The notes beneath the pieces are model-generated. The model searched no databases. It saw nothing but the letters and a program-made list of their open reading frames with translations, and was not told the origin of the DNA. This document shows positions 9,358 through 30,147 of a stretch of 64,000 nucleotides of DNA, piece by piece; positions within the stretch are counted from its first letter, which is position 1; each line of letters starts with the position of its first letter. The position numbers were made by a program, and so were the translations under genes. The DNA is from an uncultured Candidatus Saccharibacteria bacterium (GTDB taxonomy: Bacteria; Patescibacteriota; Minisyncoccia; Phycocordibacterales; CSBR16-119), in the NCBI GenBank assembly GCA_964531475.1, contig CAZHCS010000001.1:112739-176738 (forward strand), in the 5' to 3' direction.

Positions 9358-10344
9358 TTAGCGCCTCTTCAAAACTTTTTTAACGGCGAGCTTGATATGG
9401 CTAACGTCCATACCATAGTGAGCAATGAGTTCATCCATCGTGCCTGATTGGCCGAATTGATCATGAACTCCGATAAATTCTTGGAAACAAGGCTTCGTCT
9501 GCGCCAACGCTTCGGCAACAGCGCTACCCATACCGCCAGCGATTTGATGCTCCTCTACCGTAACCACACGGCCTATTTTGCTGACGTAGTCTATCATGGC
9601 CATATCGAGTGGTTTTATGGTAGCAAGATGTATAACGACGGTCTGTATTCCCTCTTCAGAAAGCTCTTTAGCCGCCACAAGTGCGTTGTGTGTCAGTGCG
9701 CCGGTTGAAATGATAGCGACTTTCGGATCAGCTGATTTCCAGAATATCTGTGATTTGCCGATTTCAAAAGATGTGTCTTTGGTTGTGATAACTGGTGTTT
9801 TTTCGCGACCAAGGCGGATGTATACCGGGCCTTCGGACTGTGCGGCCCAAAGAGTCGCTTTCCTGGCTTCTTCGGCATCGCAAGGATTGATAACAGTCAT
9901 TCGCGGCAACATGCGCATGAGACCAATATCTTCAAGCGCTTGATGCGTCGCACCGTCAGGGCCGACCGAGACCCCGGCGTGACAGCCGGCAATTTTTACC
10001 GGGACGTTGTTTATACAGATCGTGGTACGGATCTGTTCATTGTTCCTGCCAGGAGAAAACGAAGCGTATGACATGATGAATGGAATCTTGCCGTAGTTCG
10101 CCATGCCCGATGCCACAGCCGCCAAATTCTGCTCGGCCACGCCCATCTCGACGTAGCGCTTTGGGAATTTTTCCTTGAACCAATGCGCGCGCGTAGACTC
10201 AGCGAGGTCCGCGCACACGGCAATGACTCGCTCATCTTTCTCGCCCGCTTCTACCAATCCATGCCCAAAACCGTCCCTGGTCGGAACTTTCTCGACGCCT
10301 GGAGAGAACAGCTTGTCGTTTAGTTTTGAATTGGCGTTGAGCAT
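9358..10344 (-). CDS. Transketolase, C-terminal (pyrimidine-binding) subunit
   Basis: Split transketolase C-half, with ...EQNLAAVASGMA...PFIMSYASF... and the C-terminal TK_C region. Confidence 0.85.
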   Translation of the reverse strand: MLNANSKLNDKLFSPGVEKVPTRDGFGHGLVEAGEKDERVIAVCADLAESTRAHWFKEKFPKRYVEMGVAEQNLAAVASGMANYGKIPFIMSYASFSPGRNNEQIRTTICINNVPVKIAGCHAGVSVGPDGATHQALEDIGLMRMLPRMTVINPCDAEEARKATLWAAQSEGPVYIRLGREKTPVITTKDTSFEIGKSQIFWKSADPKVAIISTGALTHNALVAAKELSEEGIQTVVIHLATIKPLDMAMIDYVSKIGRVVTVEEHQIAGGMGSAVAEALAQTKPCFQEFIGVHDQFGQSGTMDELIAHYGMDVSHIKLAVKKVLKRR

Positions 10345-10345
10345 A

Positions 10346-10639
10346 TTATTTTAGGTTAAACAAAACTATCAACACAACTGCAATTGCAATTAAAAGCAGC
10401 GTGCCACTTCGCCTCTTTAGGAATTTAGACAGGTATCCTTGCTCTTCGAGACTTTTGGAACCAAACATAAAGAAAACTATTCCAAACACTGGCCCCCAAA
10501 TTAACAGAACAATGGCGGCATCAGATTTTGGAAATGCAGATTGACCCATCATCCAAAGGATCAAAAGCCTAAGACTATTTAGAAGCAGTAAAACCCCAAT
10601 CGTTATTATAAAATAGTTTGTAAGGTTTCCTTTTTTCAT
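10346..10639 (-). CDS. Small membrane protein (2-3 TM)
   Basis: 97-aa hydrophobic ORF wedged between the two transketolase halves, with 1-3 nt gaps on each side. Confidence 0.5.
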   Translation of the reverse strand: MKKGNLTNYFIITIGVLLLLNSLRLLILWMMGQSAFPKSDAAIVLLIWGPVFGIVFFMFGSKSLEEQGYLSKFLKRRSGTLLLIAIAVVLIVLFNLK

Positions 10640-10642
10640 AAT

Positions 10643-11506
10643 TTATTCACTATGACCTCCTTCTATTTTACCTTTCATCGTCCGTAATTCCTTCAACCAC
10701 TTTTGCTCTTGTTCCTTGTTCGGCGGGGTGCCGTGCCATTTGTAGTCGTACTCGATTTCGCTGATGCCTTTGCCGGCAATAGTGCGCGCAATGATGACTG
10801 TCGGCTTCTCGACGATCGCTTTCGCCTGTTCTACCGCGTCGACAATCGCTTCCATATTGTGGCCATCGATCTCGAGCACATGCCAGCCAAATGCACGCCA
10901 TTTATCTGCAAGTGGCTCGAGCGGCATGATGTCTTCGGTCATACCGTTGATCTGTATATTGTTGCGGTCGATCACGGCAGTCAGGTTCGAGAGCTTGTTC
11001 GCGCCGGCGAACATTGCCGCTTCCCAACTATTCCCAGCATCGAGCTCGCCGTCAGACAGGAAGCAATACGTGCGGAATTTTTTGCCGTCCATACGCGCAG
11101 CAAGTGCGTATCCGGCGGCTTGCGAAAGGCCAGAACCGAGTGGGCCAGAAGTAGACTCAAGTCCCGGCAATTTCTCGCGTTCCGGATGCCCCTGGAGCCG
11201 TGAGCAGAACTTACGCAGCGTAGAGAGCTCCTTGAGCGGGAAATACCCGGCATGAGCCATTGTGGCGTATCTGACAGGCACGATATGGCCGTTTGAGAGA
11301 AAGAGCCTGTCACGCTCGTCCCAATCTGGCCGCTTCGGATCGTGCTTCAAGATATGGAAATAAAACGCTGTGAAAATATCCGCCATATCGAGCGGCCCGG
11401 CCGTATGTCCCGAACCGGCGTCTTCGAGCATATCGATAATGCTTTGGCGAATGTCATTCGCCTGTAGCTCGAGCATTTTCTCTTTTCCGGGGTTTAGATT
11501 AGGCAT
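10643..11506 (-). CDS. Transketolase, N-terminal (TPP-binding) subunit
   Basis: ...GSGHTAGPLDMADI...SDGELDAGNSWEA..., the TPP-binding N-half. Confidence 0.85.
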   Translation of the reverse strand: MPNLNPGKEKMLELQANDIRQSIIDMLEDAGSGHTAGPLDMADIFTAFYFHILKHDPKRPDWDERDRLFLSNGHIVPVRYATMAHAGYFPLKELSTLRKFCSRLQGHPEREKLPGLESTSGPLGSGLSQAAGYALAARMDGKKFRTYCFLSDGELDAGNSWEAAMFAGANKLSNLTAVIDRNNIQINGMTEDIMPLEPLADKWRAFGWHVLEIDGHNMEAIVDAVEQAKAIVEKPTVIIARTIAGKGISEIEYDYKWHGTPPNKEQEQKWLKELRTMKGKIEGGHSE

Positions 11507-13297: not shown

Positions 13298-13741
13298 CTA
13301 ATTATCTAATTTCATTATCCTCCTATTGTGTCGTTCATCTCCGGAAAATTTTGTGGAAAGAAATAGATCAACGGCGGCTTTCGCTTCTTGTTCTGAAATA
13401 AATCGTGCACCGAGCGAGAGAATATTCGCATCATTGTGCTCGCGTGCGAGCTTGATGATTTCTTCTGGTCCGCCGTAGTAGACCGCAGCACGAACACCGA
13501 AAAGCCTGTTAGCCTCTACGGCTTCACCCGTTCCAGTTCCACCGATAACAATACCGAAGGCGTTGGAATCAGTTTCTGCCACCCCTTCGGCAACAAGCGC
13601 GACGAAGTCTGGATAATCGTCTGTCGGATCAAAATGCTCCGGACCCTTGTCCACGACCTCGTGTCCCATAAGCCCAAGATGGCTCACGAGCACTTTCTTC
13701 ATTTCAAAACCGGCGTGATCGCTTGCGATGTAGATTTTCAT
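13298..13741 (-). CDS. rpiB: Ribose-5-phosphate isomerase B
   Basis: MKIYIASDHAGFEMK... RpiB/LacAB family, 147 aa. Confidence 0.85.
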   Translation of the reverse strand: MKIYIASDHAGFEMKKVLVSHLGLMGHEVVDKGPEHFDPTDDYPDFVALVAEGVAETDSNAFGIVIGGTGTGEAVEANRLFGVRAAVYYGGPEEIIKLAREHNDANILSLGARFISEQEAKAAVDLFLSTKFSGDERHNRRIMKLDN

Positions 13742-13745
13742 GTTT

Positions 13746-13773
13746 AGTTTATAGTTTTTAGCTTATAGTGTAT
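13746..13773. repeat. TTATAGTTTTTAG-type spacer motif, copy B
   Basis: tttatagtttttagcttatagtgtatag lies in the rpiB / 4-helix-bundle spacer. Confidence 0.5.
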
Positions 13774-13779
13774 AGAGTA

Positions 13780-14136
13780 TTATTTCAGTTTCTGTCTCAT
13801 TGAGTTTAACATTTTCATTACTTCTGCCAATAGCTTCTCTGCAATTGAAGTATCAATGTTTTTACCGAATGGAAGATTTCTCAGCAAAATTAGTTGAGTC
13901 TCTAGTTCTGCACTTGACCCGTAGGCTATTGTAATAAAATTACAAAAATCCTTTCTTGTCCCTCGTTTACTACCTTCAGCAATATTGGACGGAATTGAAA
14001 CTGCGCATCTGTTCATCTGGGAAGAGAGTCCGAATTTCTCTGATTGTGGTAGCTGAGACGTGATCTCGTATACCTTAATTGCCAACTCCATACTCTTCTG
14101 CCAAACGACCAGGTCTTTGTTGGAATCCAAGCCCAT
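13780..14136 (-). CDS. Four-helix-bundle protein (PF05635-like; rRNA-IVS protein / Avd-like family)
   Basis: ...VWQKSMELAIKVYEIT...NRCAVSIPSNIAEGSKRGTRKDFCNFITIAYGSSAELETQLILL..., the hallmark pattern of this family. Length 118 aa. Confidence 0.7.
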   Translation of the reverse strand: MGLDSNKDLVVWQKSMELAIKVYEITSQLPQSEKFGLSSQMNRCAVSIPSNIAEGSKRGTRKDFCNFITIAYGSSAELETQLILLRNLPFGKNIDTSIAEKLLAEVMKMLNSMRQKLK

Positions 14137-14140
14137 ATTC

Positions 14141-14168
14141 GTCGTCTATAAACTATGCACTAAAAACT
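14141..14168. repeat. TTATAGTTTTTAG-type spacer motif, copy C (inverted)
   Basis: The reverse complement reads gcttatagtttttagtgcatagtttatag, in the 4-helix-bundle / gap spacer. Confidence 0.5.
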
Positions 14169-15201
14169 ATAAGCTCGTCGCTGTCTTCAGTACGTGCTGA
14201 AGCAGCGTCGCCGTATACCCCATCTCGTTGTCGTACCAAGCCATAACTTTGACCAGGTTGCCGCCAACGACGCGCGTCATCTCTAGGTCGACAATGCTCG
14301 GGATCGTCACGCCGATAATGTCTGAGGAAACGATCGGCTCGTCAGTTGCAGTCAGAAGTCCTACCCAACGCGGATCTTTCGAAGCGGTAACGAGAATCTT
14401 GTTAACCTCTTCAACCGTCGTTGGTCTCTTGGAAATGAACGTCACGTCGACAAGCGAGCCGACTGGCACCGGCACGCGAATGGAAATGCCGTCGAAAAGT
14501 CCGGTTAGCGCAGGGAAAGCTTTGGTCACCGCTATCGCCGCGCCCGTAGAACTTGGGACAATATTTTCCGCCGCAGCCCTGCCCTCTCGCAAATCTTTTT
14601 TAGACGGTCCATCAACGAGCGCCTGCGACGCCGTGTATCCGTGAACGGTGGAGAGGATTGCCTTTTCAATACCGAGAGATTCGTGCAAAACGCCAATAAG
14701 TGGCGACGCGGCATTCGTCGTGCATGAAGCATTGGACGTAATATCACATGTGCCGAATTTGTCTTCGTTAACGCCAAGAAGAATCGTTTCGCCAGGTACT
14801 GTTCCGTCAGAGTCTTTCGCTGGCGCGGAAATGACAACCTTCTTCGCACCCTGGTCGAGATGGAATTTGGCCTTCTCAAACGAAGTAAAAAGTCCCGTTG
14901 ATTCTACGACAACGTCGATATTTAAATCTTTCCATGGAAGTCCTGCGGGGTCTTTGGAAGAAACAAATTTCGTCTCGAGCTTTTTAGCACCATCAGAAAC
15001 GACAAGGTTACCGGAACTAAAATCCACAGAAAAAGGCGCACGACCATACACTGTGTCGTATTTGAGGAGATACGCGAGACTTTCTATAGTGCCAAGGTCG
15101 TTCACAGCCACGACTTCTATATCGTCGCGCTCCCAGGCCATCTTATAAAAAGCTCGCCCAATGCGACCAAAACCGTTTATGGCAACACGTACTTTTTGCA
15201 T
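14167..15201 (-). CDS. gap: Glyceraldehyde-3-phosphate dehydrogenase
   Basis: NGFGRIGR Rossmann motif and the SCTTNA active-site signature. Confidence 0.9.
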   Translation of the reverse strand: MQKVRVAINGFGRIGRAFYKMAWERDDIEVVAVNDLGTIESLAYLLKYDTVYGRAPFSVDFSSGNLVVSDGAKKLETKFVSSKDPAGLPWKDLNIDVVVESTGLFTSFEKAKFHLDQGAKKVVISAPAKDSDGTVPGETILLGVNEDKFGTCDITSNASCTTNAASPLIGVLHESLGIEKAILSTVHGYTASQALVDGPSKKDLREGRAAAENIVPSSTGAAIAVTKAFPALTGLFDGISIRVPVPVGSLVDVTFISKRPTTVEEVNKILVTASKDPRWVGLLTATDEPIVSSDIIGVTIPSIVDLEMTRVVGGNLVKVMAWYDNEMGYTATLLQHVLKTATSL

Positions 15202-15260
15202 GAAGATATTTTATCACCACATACTGAAAATACCTCAACAAGTATTTGTCTTATCCACAA

Positions 15261-15285
15261 CTGGTCGAGGTCGGACCTCGACCAG
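15261..15285. repeat. REP palindrome, family 1 (inverted copy)
   Basis: CTGGTCGAGGTCgGACCTCGACCAG, a 25-bp palindrome 18 nt upstream of the RAYT start. Confidence 0.7.
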
Positions 15286-15302
15286 TTTGTTAAAATTAAT
15301 CT

Positions 15303-15920
15303 ATGACTCGAAAAGATTCCTTTACGACCGGTTATCATTATCACGTTTATAATCGTGGTGTCGATAAAAGAAACATTTTCAAAAGCAAATCTGATTATGC
15401 TCGATTTTTAGACATACTCGAGCGTTTCAATAGTTCCCTAGCTGCAAATAATACGTCACGTGATTCAGTTCGCAAGAGAAAAGAAGACCTATCGTTAGTC
15501 AAAATTCACGCACATTGCTTAATGCCGAATCATTACCATCTTATTTTGGAGCAGCTTGTAGACAATGGGATTTCAAAATTTCTTCAAAAAGTAATGACGG
15601 GCTATACGATGTATTTCAATTTGAAACACGAACGATCAGGCGTTTTATTCCAAGGCAAGACAAAATCAAAACTTATACTAGAGGACGACTATCTCCGTTG
15701 GCTTAAGCAGTACATTGCACTCAATCCACTCGATCTCCATACACCAAATTGGAAAGAAAATGGAATTCAAGATCATAAAAGTGCAATCAATTTTTTGAAA
15801 GATTACGCTTATAGAAGCGAATACGATTATAACGATTGCGACCTTAACGGCTTTATTAAAGAATTACAAGAAGACAACTGGTCGAGGTCCGACCTCGACC
15901 AGGTGCGCGTTGAGAAATAA
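15303..15920 (+). CDS. IS200-like Y1 transposase (REP-associated tyrosine transposase, RAYT-like)
   Basis: HUH motif CLMPNHYHLILE and the catalytic-Tyr helix KQYIALNPLDL. The 3' end of the ORF runs through a REP copy. Confidence 0.8.
   Translation: MTRKDSFTTGYHYHVYNRGVDKRNIFKSKSDYARFLDILERFNSSLAANNTSRDSVRKRKEDLSLVKIHAHCLMPNHYHLILEQLVDNGISKFLQKVMTGYTMYFNLKHERSGVLFQGKTKSKLILEDDYLRWLKQYIALNPLDLHTPNWKENGIQDHKSAINFLKDYAYRSEYDYNDCDLNGFIKELQEDNWSRSDLDQVRVEK
15878..15902. repeat. REP palindrome, family 1
   Basis: CTGGTCGAGGTCcGACCTCGACCAG inside the last codons of the RAYT gene (WSRSDLDQV). Confidence 0.7.
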
Positions 15921-16537: not shown

Positions 16538-17962
16538 CTATTTTGTCAATATTTCCTGGAGTATCTTCAAGGCAAGCTGCGGATTGGCGCTTCCCTTAGA
16601 CTCACGCATAAACTGCCCGACGAGGAATTGGATGGATTTTTCGTTACCGGATTTGTAGTCTAGGGCGACTTTCGGATTGGCGACGATGATGGCTTCGGCG
16701 GTGGCCTTGAGTTTACCTTCGTCGAATTCTTGAATGAGGCCGTGCTCTTTGGCGAAAGTCTCTGGATCGATATCAGCTTTTACGATTTCCGCGATAAGGT
16801 CTTTGGCTCCACGAGAGCTTAGTTTATTGTCGCCGAGCATCTGCATGATTTTCGCAAAGCTTTCTGGTTTCGGGAATTTAAAATCTGCGCCAGCAATCTT
16901 TCGAAGACCATTTAAATCAGACAAAATATAGTTCACTGCTGGTCGAGGTCCGACCTCGACCAGGATTGCTTCGAGAAATTGGATTAATTCAAAATCTGAA
17001 ACGAGAATCTCAACATCCTCATCTTTAATGCCAAGCGCCTTCAGCCTCTCACGCTTCGCAGACGGAAGTTCTGGCAATTCCGCTCGCATCTTTTCAAGAT
17101 CAAACATCTCATGCAAGTACATCTTCGGAATATCTGGTTCCGGGAAGTAACGATAGTCGTGAGAATCTTCTTTCTTCCTTTGTGAAAATGTCGATTGTTT
17201 GTTTTCGTCCCATCCGCGCGTTTCTTGGATAATCTCGCTTCCCTTGCCAGCTTCAAGAAGCGCAATGTGGCGCTTGATCTCGTACTCGGCCGCTTTTTCG
17301 ACAGCTTTGAAAGAGTTTATGTTTTTGACTTCGACTTTTGTGCCAAATTTGTCCGTATCAGAAACAGACAAGTTCAGCTCTACACGCATTTCACCCTTTT
17401 CCATGTTCGCATCAGACACACCGAGGGTTCGGAGAAGTAATTGGAGTTCGCGTCCGAAGTCACCCGCTTCTTTGGCGCTATGAATTACTGGTTCGGTAAC
17501 GAGTTCCATGAGTGGCACACCAGCGCGATTGTAGTCGATGAGCGAAAAGCCCGCCCCGACCGAAGCGTCGGGGTCGCCATCCCTGTGTTTGTTGTTCGCG
17601 GTATCTTCTTCGAGATGCACGCGCGTTACAGCGACACCATTGAGTTTTCCACCAGAAACGATCGGATATTTGTATTGAGAAATTTGGTAGCCTTTCGGGA
17701 TATCCGGATAGAAATAGTTCTTGCGGTCAAATTCGGTGAAGTTCGCGATGTTGGCACCGAGCGCGAGGCCGACTTTGACCACGCTCTCGACGGCTTTCAT
17801 ATTCGGCACAGGCAAAGTTCCTGGATGCGCCATACATACGGGACAAACATTGACGTTTGGCTTTTCCTCGTCGGGATTATTCCGGCACGCGCAAAACATC
17901 TTGGTAGTTGTTTTCAACTCCGCGTGAATTTCTAACCCAATTGTGACTTTGTAATCTTTCAT
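16538..17962 (-). CDS. gatB: Asp-tRNA(Asn)/Glu-tRNA(Gln) amidotransferase subunit B
   Basis: MKDYKVTIGLEIHAEL... GatB N-terminus and a C-terminal GatB/YqeY domain. It contains an in-frame REP copy at 16939-16963. Confidence 0.9.
   Translation of the reverse strand: MKDYKVTIGLEIHAELKTTTKMFCACRNNPDEEKPNVNVCPVCMAHPGTLPVPNMKAVESVVKVGLALGANIANFTEFDRKNYFYPDIPKGYQISQYKYPIVSGGKLNGVAVTRVHLEEDTANNKHRDGDPDASVGAGFSLIDYNRAGVPLMELVTEPVIHSAKEAGDFGRELQLLLRTLGVSDANMEKGEMRVELNLSVSDTDKFGTKVEVKNINSFKAVEKAAEYEIKRHIALLEAGKGSEIIQETRGWDENKQSTFSQRKKEDSHDYRYFPEPDIPKMYLHEMFDLEKMRAELPELPSAKRERLKALGIKDEDVEILVSDFELIQFLEAILVEVGPRPAVNYILSDLNGLRKIAGADFKFPKPESFAKIMQMLGDNKLSSRGAKDLIAEIVKADIDPETFAKEHGLIQEFDEGKLKATAEAIIVANPKVALDYKSGNEKSIQFLVGQFMRESKGSANPQLALKILQEILTK
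16939..16963. repeat. REP palindrome, family 1, embedded in-frame in gatB
   Basis: An identical 25-mer encoding LVEVGPRPA within the GatB linker region. Confidence 0.7.
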
Positions 17963-21770: not shown

Positions 21771-23615
21771 TTATTTACGGTAACGGAATATAAATTTCTT
21801 ATCAAAATCCCTAAAAACCTTTTTTGATCCGCCACATGTTTCTACATCGAGGAATCTCTTACCATCTATACACCTTGAATAATAAATTACTTCATAGGGA
21901 TGAACACTAATTGGCTCCATTGCAACCAAAACATTATCTGGTCCATCGTAGTTAATTGCCAAATACGGTCCCATTTCAGCTGGACACATTTCAAGACCTA
22001 ATTCTTTGCAGCTCTCAATAAATTTATCAAAATAAAGATCTTCTTTAATCCCTAATTCTTCAGGAGTGAACCCTACAAGATTATATGTTTCTCTATTTTG
22101 ACTGAATTCTGTTCTGTTTAACGCTACCCTGAATGTATTTACATTATTGTGAATACCTCTTTCTTTTAATTTATATTCGGCTTCCCCAGAGTTTCTAATT
22201 TCTAGATTCGTTTCGAAATCCAATAAGAAGATATTGTCTTTTGGAAATCGCTTATACATGTGCTCAATACGAGGATGGTCTTTGATTTTTTTGAAAATGT
22301 CAAAATTCCAGTCTCCAATATAGACCTTCGTATTCTCCTTTATCTCGTCAAGATTATGAGCAATTTGATCTTCTGTACAACCAAAGACGGTCGGTGCGTC
22401 TTCTTCTGGATTTCTTTTACTCAGTAACTCAGAAACTCTCGGATCCTTGTGGTATCCAAATCCCTCAATCGGTGAGTTTAGTTCGTATATAAAGATTAGG
22501 TCTTCTTTTGAAAAAACCTCTCCCTTTTCTTGTTTCTCACAAAGAAGGGTTAGGTATTGCATATCAGCTGATTTCTTTTGATAAACATCAGCCTCACTAC
22601 CGAATTCAGAAAGTTTGTTACTAAGAATCTCTTGCATGGATGATTCAACAGCTTGATTAGGGAGGACGCCCCTTACTTCGGCAATTTTATCTTTTCCTTG
22701 CATACGAATAGCAAGACGAGGCTGTGTTGGTTCACCATTTGAATCATAACTATAGTACACATAGAAATCTCCAGTTTCTATTTGCTGTTTTGCGGTTGAT
22801 TGTCCCGCCGTACACCAGCCTGTTCCTTTACCTTCAAGTGAGGTAAAAAGTTTTTCAGCTTCTCCGTCTTTGCCTTGTTCGTATTTTATCCATTCACCAC
22901 GAAGTTCTTCTTTGTTCTCCATTTGAGCGGCAAGAGACTCTTGGGTCAACTCGGCATACAAATCTGGAAACTTTTTAGAAAAAGCATCTTGTATTTCGGG
23001 TTCTTTGAGATTCTTATTATCAGCTTTTACTTTTTCGTAAATATCAGCTATCTGCGCTAGTGGTTCGCGATAAATATCTGGAAATGGCGCAACAGTAGTT
23101 TTGGTACGCTTTTTATATTCACCACGTTCTTTGTCGAACTGTGAAAGTTTGGTTATATTTTTCCAGACATAATATTTAAACCATGCGGGATAGACAGCAT
23201 CATCCGACGTCAAATAGTCCATCCAAGCGTCGAGAGAAGCTTTCTGGTCTTGAATAGCTACTTCTTTCATTTGATTGCGAGTTTCTTCTGGAATTACTTC
23301 AACAGCCTGCCCTCGCTCTCGAGCAATTTTTTGTTGGAGTTCAAAATAGCTTTCGGGGAAATTTTCTTCTTTTATAATCAAAGAGTCGTATATCTTTGAT
23401 CGGAAAAGTTCTAGATTTCTTTTTCTAGTTTCTTGGTCTTCATTAAGAAATATATTTTCTAGACGTTCGGCGTAAGCTTCAATGCGATTGGAAGGGTCAT
23501 TTGGAATACTTTCACCGGATTCTTTTTCTTTTCTAGAAACAGCCCTTTTAACTTCTGGAGAAGTCTGAAGTTCTGGATTTTTCATATGTAGCGGATGTTT
23601 TTCCATACCCAGCAT
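21771..23615 (-). CDS. Large hypothetical protein (614 aa) in a low-GC segment
   Basis: The ORF is clearly AT-richer than its neighbours. No motif recognised. A leaderless-type -10 (TAAAAT) lies 7 nt upstream. Confidence 0.55.
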   Translation of the reverse strand: MLGMEKHPLHMKNPELQTSPEVKRAVSRKEKESGESIPNDPSNRIEAYAERLENIFLNEDQETRKRNLELFRSKIYDSLIIKEENFPESYFELQQKIARERGQAVEVIPEETRNQMKEVAIQDQKASLDAWMDYLTSDDAVYPAWFKYYVWKNITKLSQFDKERGEYKKRTKTTVAPFPDIYREPLAQIADIYEKVKADNKNLKEPEIQDAFSKKFPDLYAELTQESLAAQMENKEELRGEWIKYEQGKDGEAEKLFTSLEGKGTGWCTAGQSTAKQQIETGDFYVYYSYDSNGEPTQPRLAIRMQGKDKIAEVRGVLPNQAVESSMQEILSNKLSEFGSEADVYQKKSADMQYLTLLCEKQEKGEVFSKEDLIFIYELNSPIEGFGYHKDPRVSELLSKRNPEEDAPTVFGCTEDQIAHNLDEIKENTKVYIGDWNFDIFKKIKDHPRIEHMYKRFPKDNIFLLDFETNLEIRNSGEAEYKLKERGIHNNVNTFRVALNRTEFSQNRETYNLVGFTPEELGIKEDLYFDKFIESCKELGLEMCPAEMGPYLAINYDGPDNVLVAMEPISVHPYEVIYYSRCIDGKRFLDVETCGGSKKVFRDFDKKFIFRYRK

Positions 23616-24745: not shown

Positions 24746-25774
24746 ATGAACGCAATCATCTACGGCATCATCGGTCTCGTTGTCGGACTTATTCTCGTCC
24801 GGCTTTTCCAGTCGCGTAAAAAGTCTGACGACGGCGCGCCGCTTTTCAAAATGCTTGCCGACGAGATGAAAGACCTGCGCCGCACAATGGACGAAAAACT
24901 CCACCAGTCCAACGAATCTATCCGCTACCAGTCGAGCGAATCACAGCGCCTCATCAAAGAGATCACGCGCGAAATAACCGAAGTCAAAGAGACGGGCCGA
25001 CAAGTCATGGGCTTCACCGACCAACTCCAGCAGCTTCAGAATATGCTAAAGAATCCAAAAAGCCGCGGCGTACTCGGCGAGTATTACCTCGAGACACTTT
25101 TAAAAAATACGCTACCGCCTGGCTCGTACCAGATGCAGTATCCTTTTCAAAATGGCGAGATCGTCGACGCGGCAGTCTTTGTCAAAGACAAAATTATTCC
25201 CGTTGATTCAAAATTCTCTCTCGAAAATTATAATCGTATTACCGATGCTGCTGATCCGTCGGAGCGCGATCGCTTGGAAAAACTATTCTTGAACGATTTG
25301 AAAAATCGCATAGTCGAAACAGCCAAATACATCCGTCCGGAACTAAATACGATGGATTTCGCGTTCATGTTCATTCCCCACGAAGCGATTTATTATGATT
25401 TGCTCGTAAACAAGATCGGCGCGATCGGCGAAGATACTGAAAACCTCATCCAACGCGCAGCATCCAAGTACCGAGTCATCATCGTCTCACCGACCAGCTT
25501 CCTCGCGTACCTGCAGACTGTGCTCCAGGGACTCAAAGCTTTGCAGATCGAAGAATCCGCCAAAGAAATCCAGAAGCGTGTCGGCGAGCTAGGCAAGCAT
25601 TTGAAGTCTTACGAGGACTACCACAACAAACTCGGTCGCAATCTTTCGACAGTCGTGAACCAGTACGAACTTTCTGGCAAAGAACTCAAGAAGATCGACA
25701 AAGACGTCTATCGCATCTCTGGCGAAACTGTCGGCTTGGAGCCGCTCGAAATCGAAAAGCCTCGCGAAGACTAG
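24746..25774 (+). CDS. rmuC: DNA recombination protein RmuC
   Basis: N-terminal TM segment and coiled coil, plus the RmuC core (...DFAFMFIPHEAIY...). Confidence 0.8.
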   Translation: MNAIIYGIIGLVVGLILVRLFQSRKKSDDGAPLFKMLADEMKDLRRTMDEKLHQSNESIRYQSSESQRLIKEITREITEVKETGRQVMGFTDQLQQLQNMLKNPKSRGVLGEYYLETLLKNTLPPGSYQMQYPFQNGEIVDAAVFVKDKIIPVDSKFSLENYNRITDAADPSERDRLEKLFLNDLKNRIVETAKYIRPELNTMDFAFMFIPHEAIYYDLLVNKIGAIGEDTENLIQRAASKYRVIIVSPTSFLAYLQTVLQGLKALQIEESAKEIQKRVGELGKHLKSYEDYHNKLGRNLSTVVNQYELSGKELKKIDKDVYRISGETVGLEPLEIEKPRED

Positions 25775-25799
25775 CTGGTCGAGGTCCGACCTCGACCAG
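25775..25799. repeat. REP palindrome, family 1
   Basis: An identical 25-mer starting directly after the rmuC stop codon. Confidence 0.7.
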
Positions 25800-25887
25800 T
25801 GTGAACCGTTGACAAGGCCTATTTTTCAGCGTATACATGGGTTAGACCCACCTGCACAAAAACCTGACAACTAAAAATCCGACTGGC

Positions 25888-26703
25888 ATGAAGAAGCTCT
25901 TGCTTTTCGTTTTTGGCGCCGCGTTCATCTTGTGTGAATCGTGCACCCGCCATCATCACGTCGTTATGGCTTACGACCTGGACGATACCGTCAAAACATT
26001 GATCACTCCTGGAATGGTATCGTTCGAGGTCAATCGTCCCTGGTCGCATCAGCGTACCTGGGGCCTCATGGAGACCCGCGACGACAGCTTGCTCGGCATG
26101 GGCTATGTAACCCAAGTCAAACGAGGCAAGATTAATTCCATTTACCGGATTGGTAACATGGACACCACTTTCGCTATGCCGAATACGCACTTCTCGATGC
26201 AGGATAGCATTTTGCGGAACGGCAAGAATAAGAAGCTGGAAGTCATCAGGGTAGAACCGGAGCCATGCTTGTGCGAACCCGGTATGGGTATCTCGTTTGG
26301 AGGCGACTCAGTGACGCGCAACTTCGTACCGCCGCAGAAGAAAGTAGTCGAGATCCCGGTCGAAGCACTGCTTGATACGACGGAAGCCGGGCTTCCCGTT
26401 ATTCTCGCGGCACACATCGACACGGTCGATACACCCCTTCCGAACGGAGAGTACAGCTACCGCGTAGCTGTCAGGTACTCCGACAAGACGTCGTGTGATG
26501 TGTTCCGGCTCATCCGAAGCGAATGGCGAAAAGACGTTTTACAAACGATCTATATGCCGTCCGCAGAGCACCGAGAATACTTCCGCCAAGCCTTCGCTGC
26601 AGACAGTACCGACAAGCGAGTCGTGGGATTGGTAGTCATGAAGGACTACGTAGAGCCAAAAGGCGTCAAGAAACAGCCTCACGACAGACGTGATCGCTGG
26701 TGA
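25888..26703 (+). CDS. Secreted hypothetical protein
   Basis: Signal peptide (MKKLLLFVFGAAFILC). A TTGACA-17-TATACA promoter lies upstream. Confidence 0.55.
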   Translation: MKKLLLFVFGAAFILCESCTRHHHVVMAYDLDDTVKTLITPGMVSFEVNRPWSHQRTWGLMETRDDSLLGMGYVTQVKRGKINSIYRIGNMDTTFAMPNTHFSMQDSILRNGKNKKLEVIRVEPEPCLCEPGMGISFGGDSVTRNFVPPQKKVVEIPVEALLDTTEAGLPVILAAHIDTVDTPLPNGEYSYRVAVRYSDKTSCDVFRLIRSEWRKDVLQTIYMPSAEHREYFRQAFAADSTDKRVVGLVVMKDYVEPKGVKKQPHDRRDRW

Positions 26704-26704
26704 C

Positions 26705-26745
26705 GAAAAAGGGCGGGCCGTACGGCCCGCCCTTTCCCCTTTTCA
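26705..26745. terminator. Bidirectional terminator
   Basis: gggcgggccg-tac-ggcccgccc hairpin with an A-run and a T-run. Confidence 0.65.
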
Positions 26746-26758
26746 TTTCAATAATAAT

Positions 26759-27322
26759 TTATCGAACGATCTCGGTGACATCGATCATATACCACTCTTT
26801 CCAGACACCATCAGAAGTATCACGCATGCGCACGACGACATTCTCGCTTTCTTGCAAGACTACGAATTCCCTTTTTGTATCAGGACCTTCACACACGGCA
26901 TATGCGAAAGGTATGCCTGCCTCGGTTGCTGTATCGATGAAATCAACTTCGCGGCATGTGCCAGGATGAACGCCGAGCTTGTATGGCCGGCCAAATGAGA
27001 TAGCGTTGCCATTTCGAGTAAAGTCAGCGAATTCCATCTTGAGCCACGTTTGGTCCGTACCCGCGACTTCTGGACTTTCTGTATCAAAAACCCAGCGCAC
27101 GCCAGAGAATTCATATTCGTAATCCCCCGCCACAACCGGCTGCACAGCAGTAAGCGCAGTATCAGTCTCGGCTTGCGTGTCAGCTGGAGTATCTTCGGCG
27201 CGATCCTTCGGTCCGATGAAGACGATAAGTAACACAACAACAAGAACAGCAGCCCCGACCACCTTAGTTATAAGTCCTCCCACCTTCTGCTCTCCGTTAT
27301 TTTTTTCTGCCATAGTAACCAA
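26759..27322 (-). CDS. Membrane-anchored hypothetical protein
   Basis: N-terminal TM segment with an acidic low-complexity linker. Confidence 0.5.
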   Translation of the reverse strand: MVTMAEKNNGEQKVGGLITKVVGAAVLVVVLLIVFIGPKDRAEDTPADTQAETDTALTAVQPVVAGDYEYEFSGVRWVFDTESPEVAGTDQTWLKMEFADFTRNGNAISFGRPYKLGVHPGTCREVDFIDTATEAGIPFAYAVCEGPDTKREFVVLQESENVVVRMRDTSDGVWKEWYMIDVTEIVR

Positions 27323-27410
27323 AGTTTAGCATTTCCACTTTCTAGAGTAAAAGCCTTGATTTCGAGCAATATTTTATGTATTCTGTCTGGGTCTTTTCGC
27401 AAGAAAATAC

Positions 27411-27485
27411 GGCCCTATCGTCTAACGGTTAGGACGTGGCCTTCTCAAGGCTAAAATCGGGGTTCGATTCCCCGTAGGGTCACCA
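27411..27485 (+). tRNA. tRNA-Glu (anticodon CTC), CCA encoded
   Basis: The manual cloverleaf has a 7-bp acceptor stem, D-arm, anticodon loop ttCTCaa, a TTCGATT T-loop and a 3' ACCA. Confidence 0.8.
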
Positions 27486-27550
27486 CTTCGTGCTAGCACG
27501 AGAAGCGTACAAATAGCCTAATTTGAATATAATCTGTTTGATATTTATTT

Positions 27551-29044
27551 ATGAACTTTATAAACCTATTATCAATACTAGAATCAAAAAATAATTTATC
27601 GGATGATTTATTTAATAAGTACTTAGAATACCTAAACGTCAATCTTGAAGATAACGAAACAGGAGATCTATTAAAATTGACAGAAAGGTTATTTGGAGAA
27701 TATCAAAGTTCAGATATCTTTGATGGGTACTATATTGGATACAAAATACCGCAGATATCAAAAGAGTTTGATTTACTAAGAATCACAAAAAATTCGGTTA
27801 TTAATATTGAATTAAAATCTGGTGCGAGTGAAGAAAGTGTAAAAAAACAGTTAATACAAAATAAATATTATCTTGATTCTCTGAGGAAAGAGAAAATTTA
27901 TAATATTACATATAAATCAAACGAAGATAAGCTTTATATTCTTGATAGGAAGAAAGAGTTATGTGAGTTAGAAGTAAAAGACTTACTAGAAATTTTATTG
28001 ATGGATCCTCCCATAAAAGAGGATTTGGATTCATTATTTGATCCGTCTGAATTTCTTGTATCACCTTTCAATAATACCGATAAGTTTATAAAGGATGAGT
28101 ATTTTTTGACAGACCATCAAATAAAAATTAAGAAGTCTATAATAGAGACAATCGCGAAAAATGAGTTTAGCTCTTACGCTATCTCTGGTAAAGCAGGTAC
28201 AGGAAAAACTTTACTCGTGTATGACATAGCGAAGGAAGTGATGTCTATTGCGAATAAAGTGCTAATCGTTCATTGTGGAAAATTAAATAACGGACATATT
28301 AAGTTACGGGATGAGCATAACTTCGATTTAATTCCGATAAGTGCTTTTACAGAGCAAAGAGTTAAAATGAACTACAGTTTAATTATCTTTGATGAAGCCC
28401 AAAGAATTCGTTCGAGACAATTGACTGTAATTTTAAATAATAAAGGAAAATTTAATTACTTATTTAGTTACGATAAAACCCAAACACTAAGTCTTAGAGA
28501 TGGTAAGCATGGTCTTAAAACTGCCGCTGAATTATATGAGGGAATAAAAAACCATTTTGAATTATCTGAAAATATAAGAACGAATAAAGAAATTGCCTCT
28601 TTCATCAAAAGATTTGTTGACAAAAGTGACAACGTATCCCGAAGAGAATATAAAAATATTACAATACAATACTTTCAGCACATAAATAATGTCACTAGTT
28701 ACGTAAGAAATCTTGAAGATAATGGATGGGTTTATGTAAGTTATACTCCCCAAATGTTCGGGAGTCCGATATATGAAAAATACAATACAATTTCTAAATC
28801 ATTACAAAATGCTCATGATGTTATAGGACAAGAGTTTGATGACGTTGTTGTGATTGTTGGAGAAAAATTTCTGTATAAAGAAACGGGCGAATTAACTCAT
28901 CAGATAAACGGCCCATATATGCCACACAAAATGCTCTTTCAAGCCATGACTAGGGTGAGAAAAAAACTTAAAATAATTATAGTCAATAATCCTGAAATTT
29001 TAGAAAGATGTATAGAGATATTAAGTCCACCTAAAAAAGCATAG
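27551..29044 (+). CDS. PD-(D/E)xK-like nuclease + SF1/DUF2075-like P-loop NTPase (defense-island candidate)
   Basis: Walker A ISGKAGTGKT, Walker B IIFDEAQRI and a motif-VI-like QAMTRVRKKLKII. The N-terminal domain has D..(12)..ELK. The region is very AT-rich (roughly 30% GC by eye) and sits directly 3' of tRNA-Glu. Confidence 0.65.
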   Translation: MNFINLLSILESKNNLSDDLFNKYLEYLNVNLEDNETGDLLKLTERLFGEYQSSDIFDGYYIGYKIPQISKEFDLLRITKNSVINIELKSGASEESVKKQLIQNKYYLDSLRKEKIYNITYKSNEDKLYILDRKKELCELEVKDLLEILLMDPPIKEDLDSLFDPSEFLVSPFNNTDKFIKDEYFLTDHQIKIKKSIIETIAKNEFSSYAISGKAGTGKTLLVYDIAKEVMSIANKVLIVHCGKLNNGHIKLRDEHNFDLIPISAFTEQRVKMNYSLIIFDEAQRIRSRQLTVILNNKGKFNYLFSYDKTQTLSLRDGKHGLKTAAELYEGIKNHFELSENIRTNKEIASFIKRFVDKSDNVSRREYKNITIQYFQHINNVTSYVRNLEDNGWVYVSYTPQMFGSPIYEKYNTISKSLQNAHDVIGQEFDDVVVIVGEKFLYKETGELTHQINGPYMPHKMLFQAMTRVRKKLKIIIVNNPEILERCIEILSPPKKA

Positions 29045-29176
29045 GAAATATTACCGCTACAATGTGTCACTTTTCACCTATGTACGAGAAGGGCCATTGG
29101 GTCATAGTAAAAGTATTAGAAATAACGTTACATGGTAAGGAACCATTTGGTTCTATCTGCTGAGCACTCACAGATA

Positions 29177-29275
29177 CTTGAAAACAAAAACTGCTTTTTG
29201 TTTTCAAGAGATTGTGACGACCGGAGCGATATTTTTGTTTTGCGAAGCAAAGGCAAAAATCGCGAGGTGGGGTCG
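29177..29275. other. Array of three consecutive hairpins at the island boundary
   Basis: cttgaaaacaaaaa-ctg-ctttttgttttcaag; gcgatatttttg..caaaaatcgc; cgcga-ggtgggg-tcgcg. Confidence 0.35.
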
Positions 29276-29475
29276 CGAGAAAATTCTGTTAGGAATTTTA
29301 CTTGTGACCACACAACTTGACTTACTATAGATTATATAGTATTATTTCATTAAATTTCTTTCAAAAGTTACTTGCTTTGCCATAGCCAAAAGAGGCTTTA
29401 TTTAGGCCTTTCCTGGCTATGGCAAATGACGCCTACGCTCCCACCTCGGATTAGAGGTAACAAAAACACAAAACA

Positions 29476-30147
29476 ATGGCTTACAAAAAAGTCGTTGAGG
29501 CGTTGGGTGAATACCCTGCGTCTGTTCTCGAGCTACTCAAGAAGTGGCTCGAATGGTTCGGGCATTTCAAACCCCTCCTCGACCGTTTCCACCAGCTTCG
29601 CAAGGAGGATCTGATGGGACTGATTCACGGGACGCACGAAATCGTGCGAGTAAGGGAAGACGAACCGATCGTAGTCTTCCGTGGGATCTCTGCACGGGTT
29701 GATCTGGATGCAAAACCCACCTGGCCAGAAGATTTCGGCATCCCCGAGCACTTCGGCTTCGGAAATGTGGATGTCCAGAAGAGGTCTCCGAACGATCTCT
29801 ATGTCAACGGAAAGAAGGTCATTCTGTATCAGTCTCCCAAGCAGACGGATGGTGGAGATCCAATTTGGGGATGGGAGGTGCTCAATGAACTTCCTAAGAG
29901 GGTTGTGTTGAACGCCACACTACACAACTTCTTGCAGAAGAACGAGGACTTCATTCCTGAAGACTGGGGCGCTGATGCTGATGGTAAGGTCATCTACATC
30001 TACTTCCTGGGAACTAAGTTCTTCCGAAGGGATGCGGAAGACCAGCGGGTCTTCTTGTATAAGAGGGCTGGCAAGTGGCACTACAGCCGTGGCACGCTAA
30101 GTCGGCAATGGGGGGCTAACGTCTACCTCGCTCGTTTGGAAGACTAG
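29476..30147 (+). CDS. Hypothetical protein
   Basis: 223-aa ORF at normal GC, preceded by a 12-bp-stem hairpin (tttgccatagcc...ggctatggcaaa). Confidence 0.5.
   Translation: MAYKKVVEALGEYPASVLELLKKWLEWFGHFKPLLDRFHQLRKEDLMGLIHGTHEIVRVREDEPIVVFRGISARVDLDAKPTWPEDFGIPEHFGFGNVDVQKRSPNDLYVNGKKVILYQSPKQTDGGDPIWGWEVLNELPKRVVLNATLHNFLQKNEDFIPEDWGADADGKVIYIYFLGTKFFRRDAEDQRVFLYKRAGKWHYSRGTLSRQWGANVYLARLED

Follow-up and report, generated by a model that had tools for sequence, protein, structure and literature searches.

A probable Nhi/AbiO-family anti-phage gene on a foreign cassette at the 3' end of tRNA-Glu in a Patescibacteria genome

In a 64-kb stretch of contig CAZHCS010000001.1 (the window, meaning the whole stretch that was analysed), the open reading frame (ORF) at 27551-29044, directly downstream of tRNA-Glu(CTC), encodes a 497-residue nuclease-helicase that is probably a functional anti-phage protein of the Nhi/AbiO family, carried on a foreign cassette at the 3' end of the tRNA gene. 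The gene itself is ordinary, being another member of a known defence family. Its host is a bacterium of the candidate phyla radiation (CPR; Patescibacteria): the named relatives of the RF1 encoded in the window are metagenome-assembled genomes (MAGs) of Candidatus Paceibacterota/Patescibacteria at 68-71% identity, those of the Nhi gene belong to Candidatus Campbellbacteria and Candidatus Paceibacterota, and a gene neighbouring the AT-rich islet contains DUF5671. Coordinates of all features are collected in Table 1.

A nuclease-helicase of the Nhi/AbiO family

The protein matches two PADLOC defence models over nearly their full lengths: AbiO (PDLC02350; E = 1.5e-158, 526.4 bits; residues 1-491 on positions 1-467 of 468) and Nhi (E = 1.7e-157, 522.9 bits; residues 1-491 on positions 1-469 of 470). 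Pfam assigns the SLFN-g3_helicase domain PF09848, formerly DUF2075 (2.3e-10, 40.7 bits against a cutoff of 24), and gives weaker matches to superfamily 1 (SF1) helicases and AAA proteins. A search of PDB sequences with the protein returned nothing at E <= 1, so fold searches were needed. Because those made with the full-length protein were dominated by helicases (Foldseek neighbours SLFN11, Dda, RecD2, Pif1, Upf1, Dna2 and PriA), residues 1-177 were modelled alone, and the N-terminus is predicted from this model to adopt a restriction-endonuclease-like fold, with HsdR (3H1T) among the templates. An earlier, sequence-only reading of this DNA had proposed a Nhi-like or DUF2075-type nuclease-helicase as a defence candidate, and the full-length AbiO and Nhi matches, the DUF2075 match and the predicted N-terminal fold all agree with that proposal. 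A NERD domain, which it had also raised, scored below threshold (E = 0.14), and the nuclease is of the generic PD-(D/E)xK type.

Motif invariance was judged on an alignment of 37 homologs extending down to 41% identity. Invariant residues of the nuclease domain are the D...ExK triad (D74, E87 and K89 within EFDLL...INIELK), Q100 and Y106/Y107. Those of the helicase core are G216-T-G-K219-T220 of Walker A (GKAGTGKT, G213-T220), D281, E282, Q284 and R285 of Walker B (DEAQR), and the further SF1 residues S306/D308/Q311, R343, G426-Q-E428 and R468. Motif VI is present as TRVRKKL, and the protein stops 29 residues after it. All four motifs quoted in the sequence-only reading (D...ELK, GKAGTGKT, DEAQ and TRVRKKL) occur in the translation and are invariant in the 37 homologs. 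The ratio of nonsynonymous to synonymous substitution rates (dN/dS), computed against seven relatives, is 0.16-0.21 (about 0.17), which indicates that the gene is selectively maintained and is not a decaying remnant.

More than 3,700 matches to the protein were found. About 22 close relatives (61-82% identity) all derive from metagenomes or MAGs, and an outer shell at 41-46% identity includes proteins of Bacillus, Flavobacterium, Pseudomonas, Shewanella, Klebsiella and others. The family is carried on 221 plasmids, mostly of Bacillus and Enterococcus with some of Lactococcus and Lactiplantibacillus, as well as in 12 viral contigs and four phage records, including two Streptococcus prophages; two Streptococcus phage homologs likewise appear in the paper that described Nhi (Bari et al., bioRxiv 10.1101/776245). 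Bacillus anthracis pXO1-133, identified elsewhere as Nhi (PMC11811056), is 37% identical to the window protein over 98% of its length, and plasmid proteins of B. thuringiensis and Providencia are ~41% identical. Since AbiO and Nhi calls may coincide on the same proteins (PMC11811056), Nhi/AbiO is treated here as one sequence family with two names. A scan of a genome collection for relatives of the gene gave a single match, in a Campbellbacteria genome (L004). That copy (10001-11487) is split by a one-base frameshift at a run of A (…ATGAAAATGAATATTTTCTAA…) and has no adjacent tRNA; it is either a pseudogene or a sequencing error.

Foreign composition and linkage to tRNA-Glu

G+C content, measured in 300-nt windows, is 0.25-0.34 across ~27500-29200 and ~0.50 on both flanks, in accord with the estimate of about 30% over ~1.6 kb in the sequence-only reading. 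The Nhi ORF, with a G+C content of 0.297 against 0.469 for the whole window, is the lowest among ~70 window ORFs, and its G+C content at third codon positions (GC3) is 0.25, compared with a range of 0.47-0.66 for six genes nearby. In all the other Nhi loci, too, the flanks are less AT-rich than the gene. By composition, the Nhi cassette is of foreign origin. The islet contains the single 497-residue ORF already recognized from the letters and no second one, the overlapping ORFs of 52-63 codons inside it being spurious, and no other defence gene adjoins Nhi in the window itself.

Eight further Nhi loci of the close clade (61-82% identity, from CPR genomes) were compared (L002-L008 and L016), giving nine with the window locus. 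A co-oriented tRNA-Glu lies 64-87 nt 5' of the gene in the window, L002, L005, L008 and L016; in the window ARAGORN and Rfam agree on the tRNA-Glu(CTC) that had been placed directly 5' of the islet. The anticodon is CTC in the window, L005 and L016, and TTC in L002, L003 and L008. L003 starts with the 3' part of a tRNA-Glu, which a small cassette separates from the gene ~490 nt downstream, and L006 and L007 include only a terminal tRNA fragment (...CTGTAGGGTCACCA and ...GGATCACCA, respectively) directly before the conserved leader. L004 alone among the nine loci is without tRNA linkage, and the genes flanking the Nhi loci differ from genome to genome. The recurrent linkage of the gene to tRNA-Glu is not coincidental.

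The 3' end of the same tRNA is unoccupied in a close relative, L009. The product of its neighbouring gene is 91% identical to the 187-residue product of the corresponding window gene, its tRNA is 93% identical, and the RmuC and ExoX genes are syntenic at ~78% nucleotide identity; the tRNA (...GTAGGGTCAC|AAAATAAAC) runs directly into host DNA and the neighbour gene, with no cassette. Comparison of this tRNA-Glu locus across relatives, as the sequence-only reading had recommended, thus reveals variation in the presence of the gene, and the tRNA-Glu of L009 without it supports the horizontal acquisition beside the tRNA that had been supposed. Two other relatives, L013 and L014 (88-98% nucleotide identity), stop before or inside the tRNA and therefore cannot show whether the site is occupied. 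The 223-residue ORF downstream of the cassette was considered as a synteny anchor and rejected, being a near-orphan with a 92%-identical copy (L011/L012) in another context.

Comparison of L009 1-715 with window 26760-27483 and L014 12026-12794 shows that a 271-residue gene between RmuC and the 187-residue neighbour is missing in L009, while L014 keeps the arrangement of the window. This missing gene, together with an inversion in L009, marks the tRNA-Glu region as a rearrangement hotspot in the lineage. In independent assemblies, contigs L001, L003, L006, L009, L014 and L017 end within or beside tRNA-Glu or at an edge of the cassette. L001 (SRR13355622) belongs to the same strain, has an identical islet and spans only window positions ~27215-29565. 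As a hint only, these breaks suggest a site that occurs in several copies or varies among the populations sampled.

It is very improbable that the protein is a housekeeping or repair nuclease-helicase of the host, comparable to RecD2, Dna2 or AddAB, with a chance position beside the tRNA and a low G+C content due to local constraint. The repair and replication helicases RecD2, Pif1, Dna2 and PriA among its structural neighbours would fit such a role, as would the genes for RmuC and an ExoX-like exonuclease 2-4 kb upstream. No NCBIfam housekeeping equivalog was approached, however, recD doing best with 15.5 bits where 310 are required; L009 has the same tRNA without the gene 3' of it, and the neighbours of the gene change in every genome; the family is carried on the 221 plasmids and in prophages; and a GC3 of 0.25 against ~0.6 is not local drift. 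One MAG copy is frameshifted (L004), and restriction enzymes adjoin the gene in L005 and L016. A housekeeping family conserved at similar G+C content in relatives, which the sequence-only reading had named as its own refutation, did not materialize, and this alternative is largely refuted.

Equally hard to credit is a mobile unit that includes the tRNA, in which tRNA-Glu and Nhi would form one module, the tRNA replacing a counterpart cleaved during infection or driving Nhi expression. The two are adjacent and co-oriented in six loci, and CCA is encoded at the type-1 loci that bear a cassette and not at the empty site of L009. Yet the anticodon varies by locus and the tRNA bodies track the host rather than the cassette; L014 and L009 carry the same tRNA (97% and 93% identity) beside the same host gene, in L009 without Nhi; the homology of L006 begins just 18 nt from the tRNA 3' end, preceded by sequence that is not tRNA; and no sequence is conserved between loci 5' of the tRNA. 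The tRNA was rejected as cassette cargo on account of these differing anticodons, the L009 tRNA without Nhi and the unconserved 5' flanks.

With regard to the tRNA ends themselves, the genome encodes CCA in the window, L002 and L008, in each of which the tRNA precedes a type-1 left arm, and in L005 too; the empty site of L009 (…TCACAAAA) and L016 (…TCACAAAG) are without it. This pattern implies that the cassette may contribute the last bases of the tRNA and that the crossover point is uncertain by 2-3 nt. A duplicate of ~27 nt of the tRNA-Glu 5' end (L008 233-259) is located ~105 nt upstream of the intact tRNA-Glu(TTC) of L008 (368-442), and may be a trace left by another element, one with the 5' half of this tRNA as its target.

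Cassette arms and boundaries

The cassette occupies 27484-29171 (~1.69 kb, 30% G+C). Nucleotide homology to the other Nhi loci begins inside or at the tRNA and ends 100-130 nt past the stop codon; in blastn comparisons with L002, L003 and L006 it stops at window positions 29139-29175. The left arm was matched by an nhmmer profile in the window, L002, L006, L007, L008 and, twice, L003, and neither arm profile has another match elsewhere in the window. The left arm includes a TATAAT hexamer and likely carries the cassette's own promoter; a promoter consensus scan did not flag it. The hairpin at its start is broken in L008 without a compensatory change (alignment A1), and so no structural role is claimed for it.

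The right arm reads, in order, ...ACGAGAAGGG..., CAGGGTAAGG, the hairpin, GGTTCTATCTGCTG and a core ending in TCAC, where homology ends (alignment A2); the right boundary is placed after TCAC, at 29171|29172, within ~3 nt. The right-end core of L006 (TGTAGGGTCAC) and of L002 (TATAGGGTCAC) is a copy of the tRNA-Glu 3' end (CCGTAGGGTCAC), and a 12-nt exact repeat, CTGTAGGGTCAC, flanks the L006 cassette on both sides. Similarity of the right end to the tRNA 3' half has z = 6.5 in L006, 4.1 in L008 and 3.7 in L002, and is borderline in L016 and in the upstream copy of L003. Both arms contain the ACGAGAAG motif, which a recombinase might bind as an arm-type site. No Rfam family matches the arms or the spacer beyond them, apart from weak miRNA-like hairpin matches far below gathering scores. 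Viral contigs, scanned three times by pattern for the arms, yielded nothing or only chance matches in coding regions (L010 and L018) that the profiles did not support.

Several observations weigh against a functional family member on a tRNA-targeted cassette. Membership in the family is judged from the PADLOC profiles and from pXO1-133; the window protein is without the C-terminal domain of Nhi of Staphylococcus epidermidis (SERP2475, 606 residues), a domain called poorly conserved; and one of four heterologous Nhi homologs tested, that from Bacteroidetes, was unprotective (bioRxiv 10.1101/776245). The tRNA of L009 is inverted relative to the neighbour gene, so that the comparison with the empty site is not a clean isogenic one, and the closest relative, L014 (97% identical across 26703-27471, in the window orientation), ends inside the T-arm of the tRNA. 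The right end of the window cassette is not detectably a tRNA repeat (z = -0.5, p = 0.8). Nor was a direct repeat found within 27300-29700, so that the partial tRNA 3'-end repeat for which the sequence-only reading had hoped did not appear in the window taken alone; attR is recognizable here only through homology to the right ends of relatives.

A recombinase is also missing from the gene tables of L002-L008 and L016. The integrase survey covered these tables, the islet and 20 surrounding window ORFs, which in Pfam searches contained no recombinase and were all housekeeping or of no assigned function. The absence of an integrase from the islet, remarked upon in the sequence-only reading, is therefore correct for the surrounding ORFs too. 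The idea of a decayed integration remnant that had been built on it holds for the missing integrase and fails for the gene, which is intact and under the constraint given above; because an integrase is missing in all nine loci, its absence is no sign of a decay peculiar to the window.

Tandem arrays and possible mobility

The window contains the one-cassette version of an arrangement that is longer in some relatives. The order in L003 is tRNA-Glu, left arm, a 90-residue ORF, right arm, left arm, Nhi, right arm and a third left arm. In L016, tRNA-Glu is followed by Nhi, a right arm and a DpnI-like methyl-directed enzyme (6e-102). In L005, tRNA-Glu is followed by Nhi, a HaeIII-type REase_II (8e-100), a C5 methyltransferase (MTase_II, 9e-113), a PtuA-like ATPase (1e-28) together with its small partner, and a PIN_12 protein; beyond these lie a right arm (E = 6e-7) and two more junctions (AGTTCTATC.CTCAAA.GCTCAC, then ..TTAG...GAGAA), each leading into a further small ORF. 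The PtuA-like ATPase of L005 and the overlapping 171-residue ORF after it (13584-15375 for the pair), of which the latter has only a weak Toprim-like match, may constitute a Septu/Gabija-like two-gene system within the tRNA-Glu array.

This layout is what site-specific recombination would leave if the tRNA 3' end served as attB and an imitation of it on the element as attP. The right arm would be a degenerate copy of the tRNA-Glu 3' half, and the arms are laid out as would be expected of attL and attR. Because each right arm would regenerate the target, cassettes could stack, which would explain the tandem defence arrays; because the cassette contains no recombinase, the enzyme would be supplied in trans, as for cis-mobilizable elements (CIMEs), or the cassette would now be fixed. 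More tentatively, and with prospects somewhat short of even, the arrays may belong to an undescribed integron-like cassette system of Paceibacterota (CPR), which would build defence arrays with a recombinase that is never cassette-borne. Its units would be short and promoter-bearing, many of them single-gene, and would insert at the tRNA-Glu 3' end and then one behind another. Each would lie between a left arm of 65 nt and a pseudo-tRNA-Glu right arm of 130 nt, and the cargo would include restriction enzymes (type II and methyl-directed), Nhi, PIN proteins, a Septu-like ATPase, small kinases and ORFs without assigned function.

A non-autonomous IS200/IS605 transposon (HUH Y1, single-strand), inserting 3' of TCAC without target duplication and with the passenger gene in place of tnpA, is a distinctly improbable alternative. 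TCAC is the only sequence strictly common to every left flank and right end, there is a hairpin close to each end, the left one immediately within the cassette (27486-27505) and the right one ~18 nt from the boundary (29139-29153), no integrase occurs in any locus, and insertion 3' of the target copy at the element's own right end would likewise yield tandem arrays. However, neither a Y1 transposase (Y1_Tnp) nor TnpB is listed in any of the locus tables, to which this check was confined. The similarity of right arm and tRNA extends far beyond four bases in L006, L002 and L008, as for an attP that mimics attB, and all insertions are at tRNA-Glu or at another cassette, a specificity greater than that of a 4-nt target. 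Compensatory changes have not kept the left-arm hairpin in L008, and the ACGAGAAG motif in both arms would resemble arm-type integrase sites. These points favour recombination at the tRNA 3' end over single-strand transposition.

Proposed action of the protein

Nhi was defined by the combination of an N-terminal PD-(D/E)XK nuclease with a DUF2075/SF1B helicase; alanine mutants in either domain of the S. epidermidis protein abolish immunity, and SERP2475 and three of the four homologs tested protect against phage. The N-terminal domain alone is a Mg/Mn-dependent 3'-5' exonuclease with nicking activity, whereas the complete protein is subject to auto-inhibition and acts as a bidirectional DNA helicase. 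In the model of its authors, Nhi senses and degrades phage-specific replication intermediates, which blocks phage DNA accumulation, and a phage single-stranded DNA-binding protein (SSB) is able to protect against it (bioRxiv 10.1101/776245). Anti-phage activity and a biochemical mechanism in the present host can be proposed by analogy. The full-length window protein would be held auto-inhibited, the helicase would engage phage replication intermediates or free DNA ends and feed DNA to the nuclease, and the PD-(D/E)xK domain would nick or degrade that DNA, so that accumulation of the phage genome would be prevented. Phage proteins of the SSB type would be a likely escape route.

Abortive infection of the AbiO type, with self-damage, cell death or dormancy in place of the cell-sparing immunity of Nhi, is rather unlikely. 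The AbiO profile scores marginally above that of Nhi (526.4 vs 522.9 bits), and the nearest plasmid relatives come from B. thuringiensis, the species with the most AbiO calls in a survey of the B. cereus group, which classed AbiO as abortive. One Nhi homolog of Staphylococcus aureus was toxic when induced, and the window protein is a short form without the C-terminal domain of SERP2475. Against these points, the two profiles are in a near tie and the literature assigns the same proteins to either system, which makes the distinction between AbiO and Nhi one of phenotype and not of sequence; the catalytic motifs are common to Nhi homologs of all three clades, and no sequence feature separates AbiO from Nhi.

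Comparison with known systems

Nhi (SERP2475, WP_002489608, of S. epidermidis RP62a) is, like the window protein, a single polypeptide with a PD-(D/E)xK N-terminus, for which HsdR 3H1T was the closest reported template, and with a DUF2075/SF1B core resembling Dda, Upf1 and Dna2. Horizontal spread is common to both, and the defence-gene neighbours of Nhi have their counterpart in relatives of the window locus (L005 and L016). In contrast to SERP2475, in which a glyoxalase/bleomycin-resistance-like domain forms the C-terminus, the 497-residue window protein has no Pfam match to such a domain. Nhi was reported only from Firmicutes, Bacteroidetes and Proteobacteria (bioRxiv 10.1101/776245), whereas the window host belongs to Patescibacteria, and it is borne on plasmids and prophages, whereas the window gene is chromosomal in a tRNA-linked cassette. 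AbiO, a lactococcal plasmid gene compared here through its profile, is the best-scoring defence model and has a similar length and domain order; what defines it is the abortive phenotype in Lactococcus, a trait that sequence does not reveal. The pXO1-133 protein and the 'DNA/RNA helicase domain-containing' proteins of B. thuringiensis and Providencia are collinear with the window protein over 98-100% (37% and ~41% identity), but they are plasmid-borne, pXO1-133 beside a XerS-type integrase (PMC11811056), and no tRNA linkage has been reported for them. The Schlafen group 3 helicase (PF09848; human SLFN11 and SLFN14) gives the best Pfam and Foldseek matches and exemplifies the union of a nuclease with this helicase in antiviral proteins; its N-terminal RNase domain is unrelated, and identity to the window protein is only 13-15%.

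Among mobile elements, CIMEs keep attL and attR after the loss of integration genes and undergo tandem accretion at tRNA genes (PMC5704250). The cassette resembles them in having no integration or transfer genes, in its putative att-like ends, one of which is a tRNA 3' end, and in the apparent tandem addition at a regenerated site. CIMEs, however, have been described as decayed integrative and conjugative elements (ICEs) or integrative and mobilizable elements (IMEs) of several kb in Firmicutes, whereas the cassettes are CPR units of 0.5-1.7 kb, often single-gene, that share a 65-nt and a 130-nt arm across genomes with varied defence cargo; no parent ICE or IME was seen. Integron cassettes are alike in being small units with mostly a single ORF and a conserved, partly palindromic recombination region of ~100-200 nt, added in one orientation at a fixed site. 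The hallmarks of integrons (IntI, attI/Pc, and attC with R''/L''-L'/R' boxes and the GTTRRRY core) are absent from the tRNA-Glu arrays, where instead the head is a tRNA-Glu gene, the junctions are pseudo-tRNA-Glu 3' halves ending in ...CTCAC, and each cassette apparently has its own promoter.

Spacer and other features of the window

The 3' part of the cassette and the spacer beyond it (29045-29475) fold far more stably than shuffled sequences (z = -9.0 and -8.4 for the + and - strands, respectively) and contain at least five stem-loops (~29139-29153, 29177-29208, ~29228-29258, 29260-29278 and 29376-29426). The sequence-only reading had correctly noticed a structured cluster here and undercounted it as three hairpins. 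The spacer is without a homolog at the remaining Nhi loci. Upstream of its copy of the 223-residue ORF, L011 shows a comparable TTGACA promoter together with a TTGCCATAGC...GCTGTGGCAA repeat; the promoter-like site and inverted repeat of the spacer most likely serve this ORF, not Nhi.

Table 1. Features of the tRNA-Glu locus of the window
Feature	Position	Strand	Evidence or remarks
tRNA-Glu(CTC)	27411-27485	+	ARAGORN and Rfam RF00005, 61 bits
tRNA T-arm and acceptor strand: cassette left junction, putative attL/attB core	~27459-27485	+	TCAC 27480-27483; CCA 27483-27485
Cassette left arm, 65-nt leader	27486-27550	+	Alignment A1, nhmmer left-arm profile
Left-arm imperfect hairpin CTTCGTGCTAGCACGAGAAG, including ACGAGAAG motif	27486-27505	+	Alignment A1
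Left-arm TATAAT hexamer	27528-27533	+	Followed by AT-rich stretch to ATG, no obvious Shine-Dalgarno sequence
Nhi/AbiO-family gene, 497 residues	27551-29044	+	ORF call, PADLOC
PD-(D/E)xK nuclease domain	Residues 1-175 (27551-28075)	+	D74, E87, K89, Q100, Y106/Y107
SF1B/DUF2075 helicase core	Residues ~186-480 (28106-28990)	+	SF1 motifs, PF09848
Cassette right arm, ~127 nt	29045-29171	+	blastn, alignment A2, nhmmer right-arm profile
Right-arm GTACGAGAAGGG, second copy of ACGAGAAG motif	29082-29093	+	
Right-arm hairpin GGAACC-ATTT-GGTTC	29139-29153	+	
Terminal right-arm stretch GGTTCTATCTGCTGAGCACTCAC, attR position-homolog	29149-29171	+	Homology to relatives
Structured spacer beyond conserved cassette	29172-29475	.	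Folding, hairpin scans
Perfect 14-bp stem-loop	29177-29208		In spacer
Terminator-like hairpin, one of two further hairpins	29260-29278	-	
Sigma-70-like TTGACT-17-TATTAT	29317-29345		In spacer; 10/12 matches, predicted
Inverted repeat with 21-nt arms, TTTGCCATAGCC...GGCTATGGCAAA	29376-29426		Directly 5' of 223-residue ORF

The 223-residue ORF (29476-30147, + strand, G+C content 0.52) is an orphan with only five distant homologs. Its copies in L011 (3233-3904) and L012 (237-908) have 92% nucleotide identity and are located between a DUF8128/TraG-like gene and NDK; homology between the copies is confined to the ORF and 19 nt upstream. Ahead of each copy of the ORF lie a promoter-like site, TTGAC(T/A), and an inverted repeat, TTGCCATAGC...GCT(A/G)TGGCAA, and in L011 a sequence resembling the att core, GTTCTCGTGTAGGGTC, occurs ~190 nt upstream. 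The 223-residue ORF may itself be a mobile unit.

A 614-residue ORF (21771-23615, - strand, G+C content 0.37) without a Pfam or PADLOC match separates the YqeY-like gene from the ExoX-like gene. In the close relatives L009, L013 and L014 these two genes adjoin and the ORF is missing; it is a second strain-specific AT-rich insertion. A palindromic repeat of ~25-30 nt, intergenic and on both strands (15257-15287, 15874-15903, 16939-16963 and 25770-25806), looks like a family of repetitive extragenic palindromic (REP)-type repeats of this genome.

Significance for Patescibacteria

An intact and selected chromosomal copy in Patescibacteria (CPR) extends the range of Nhi/AbiO to a phylum from which it was not previously reported. 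Patescibacteria have tiny genomes, are said to be largely without clustered regularly interspaced short palindromic repeat (CRISPR) systems and are believed to depend on restriction-modification (PMC12455944). A defence that consists of one compact protein fits such genomes. The only novel lead is the vehicle, the cassettes and arrays at tRNA-Glu in CPR bacteria. If a systematic survey upholds the arms and arrays, they would be a route by which ultra-small bacteria exchange immunity genes. The arms would then be a simple sequence handle with which to harvest new defence genes from CPR metagenomes, and an integron-like system of this kind would be a very economical means of shuffling immunity genes for genomes of less than 1 Mb.

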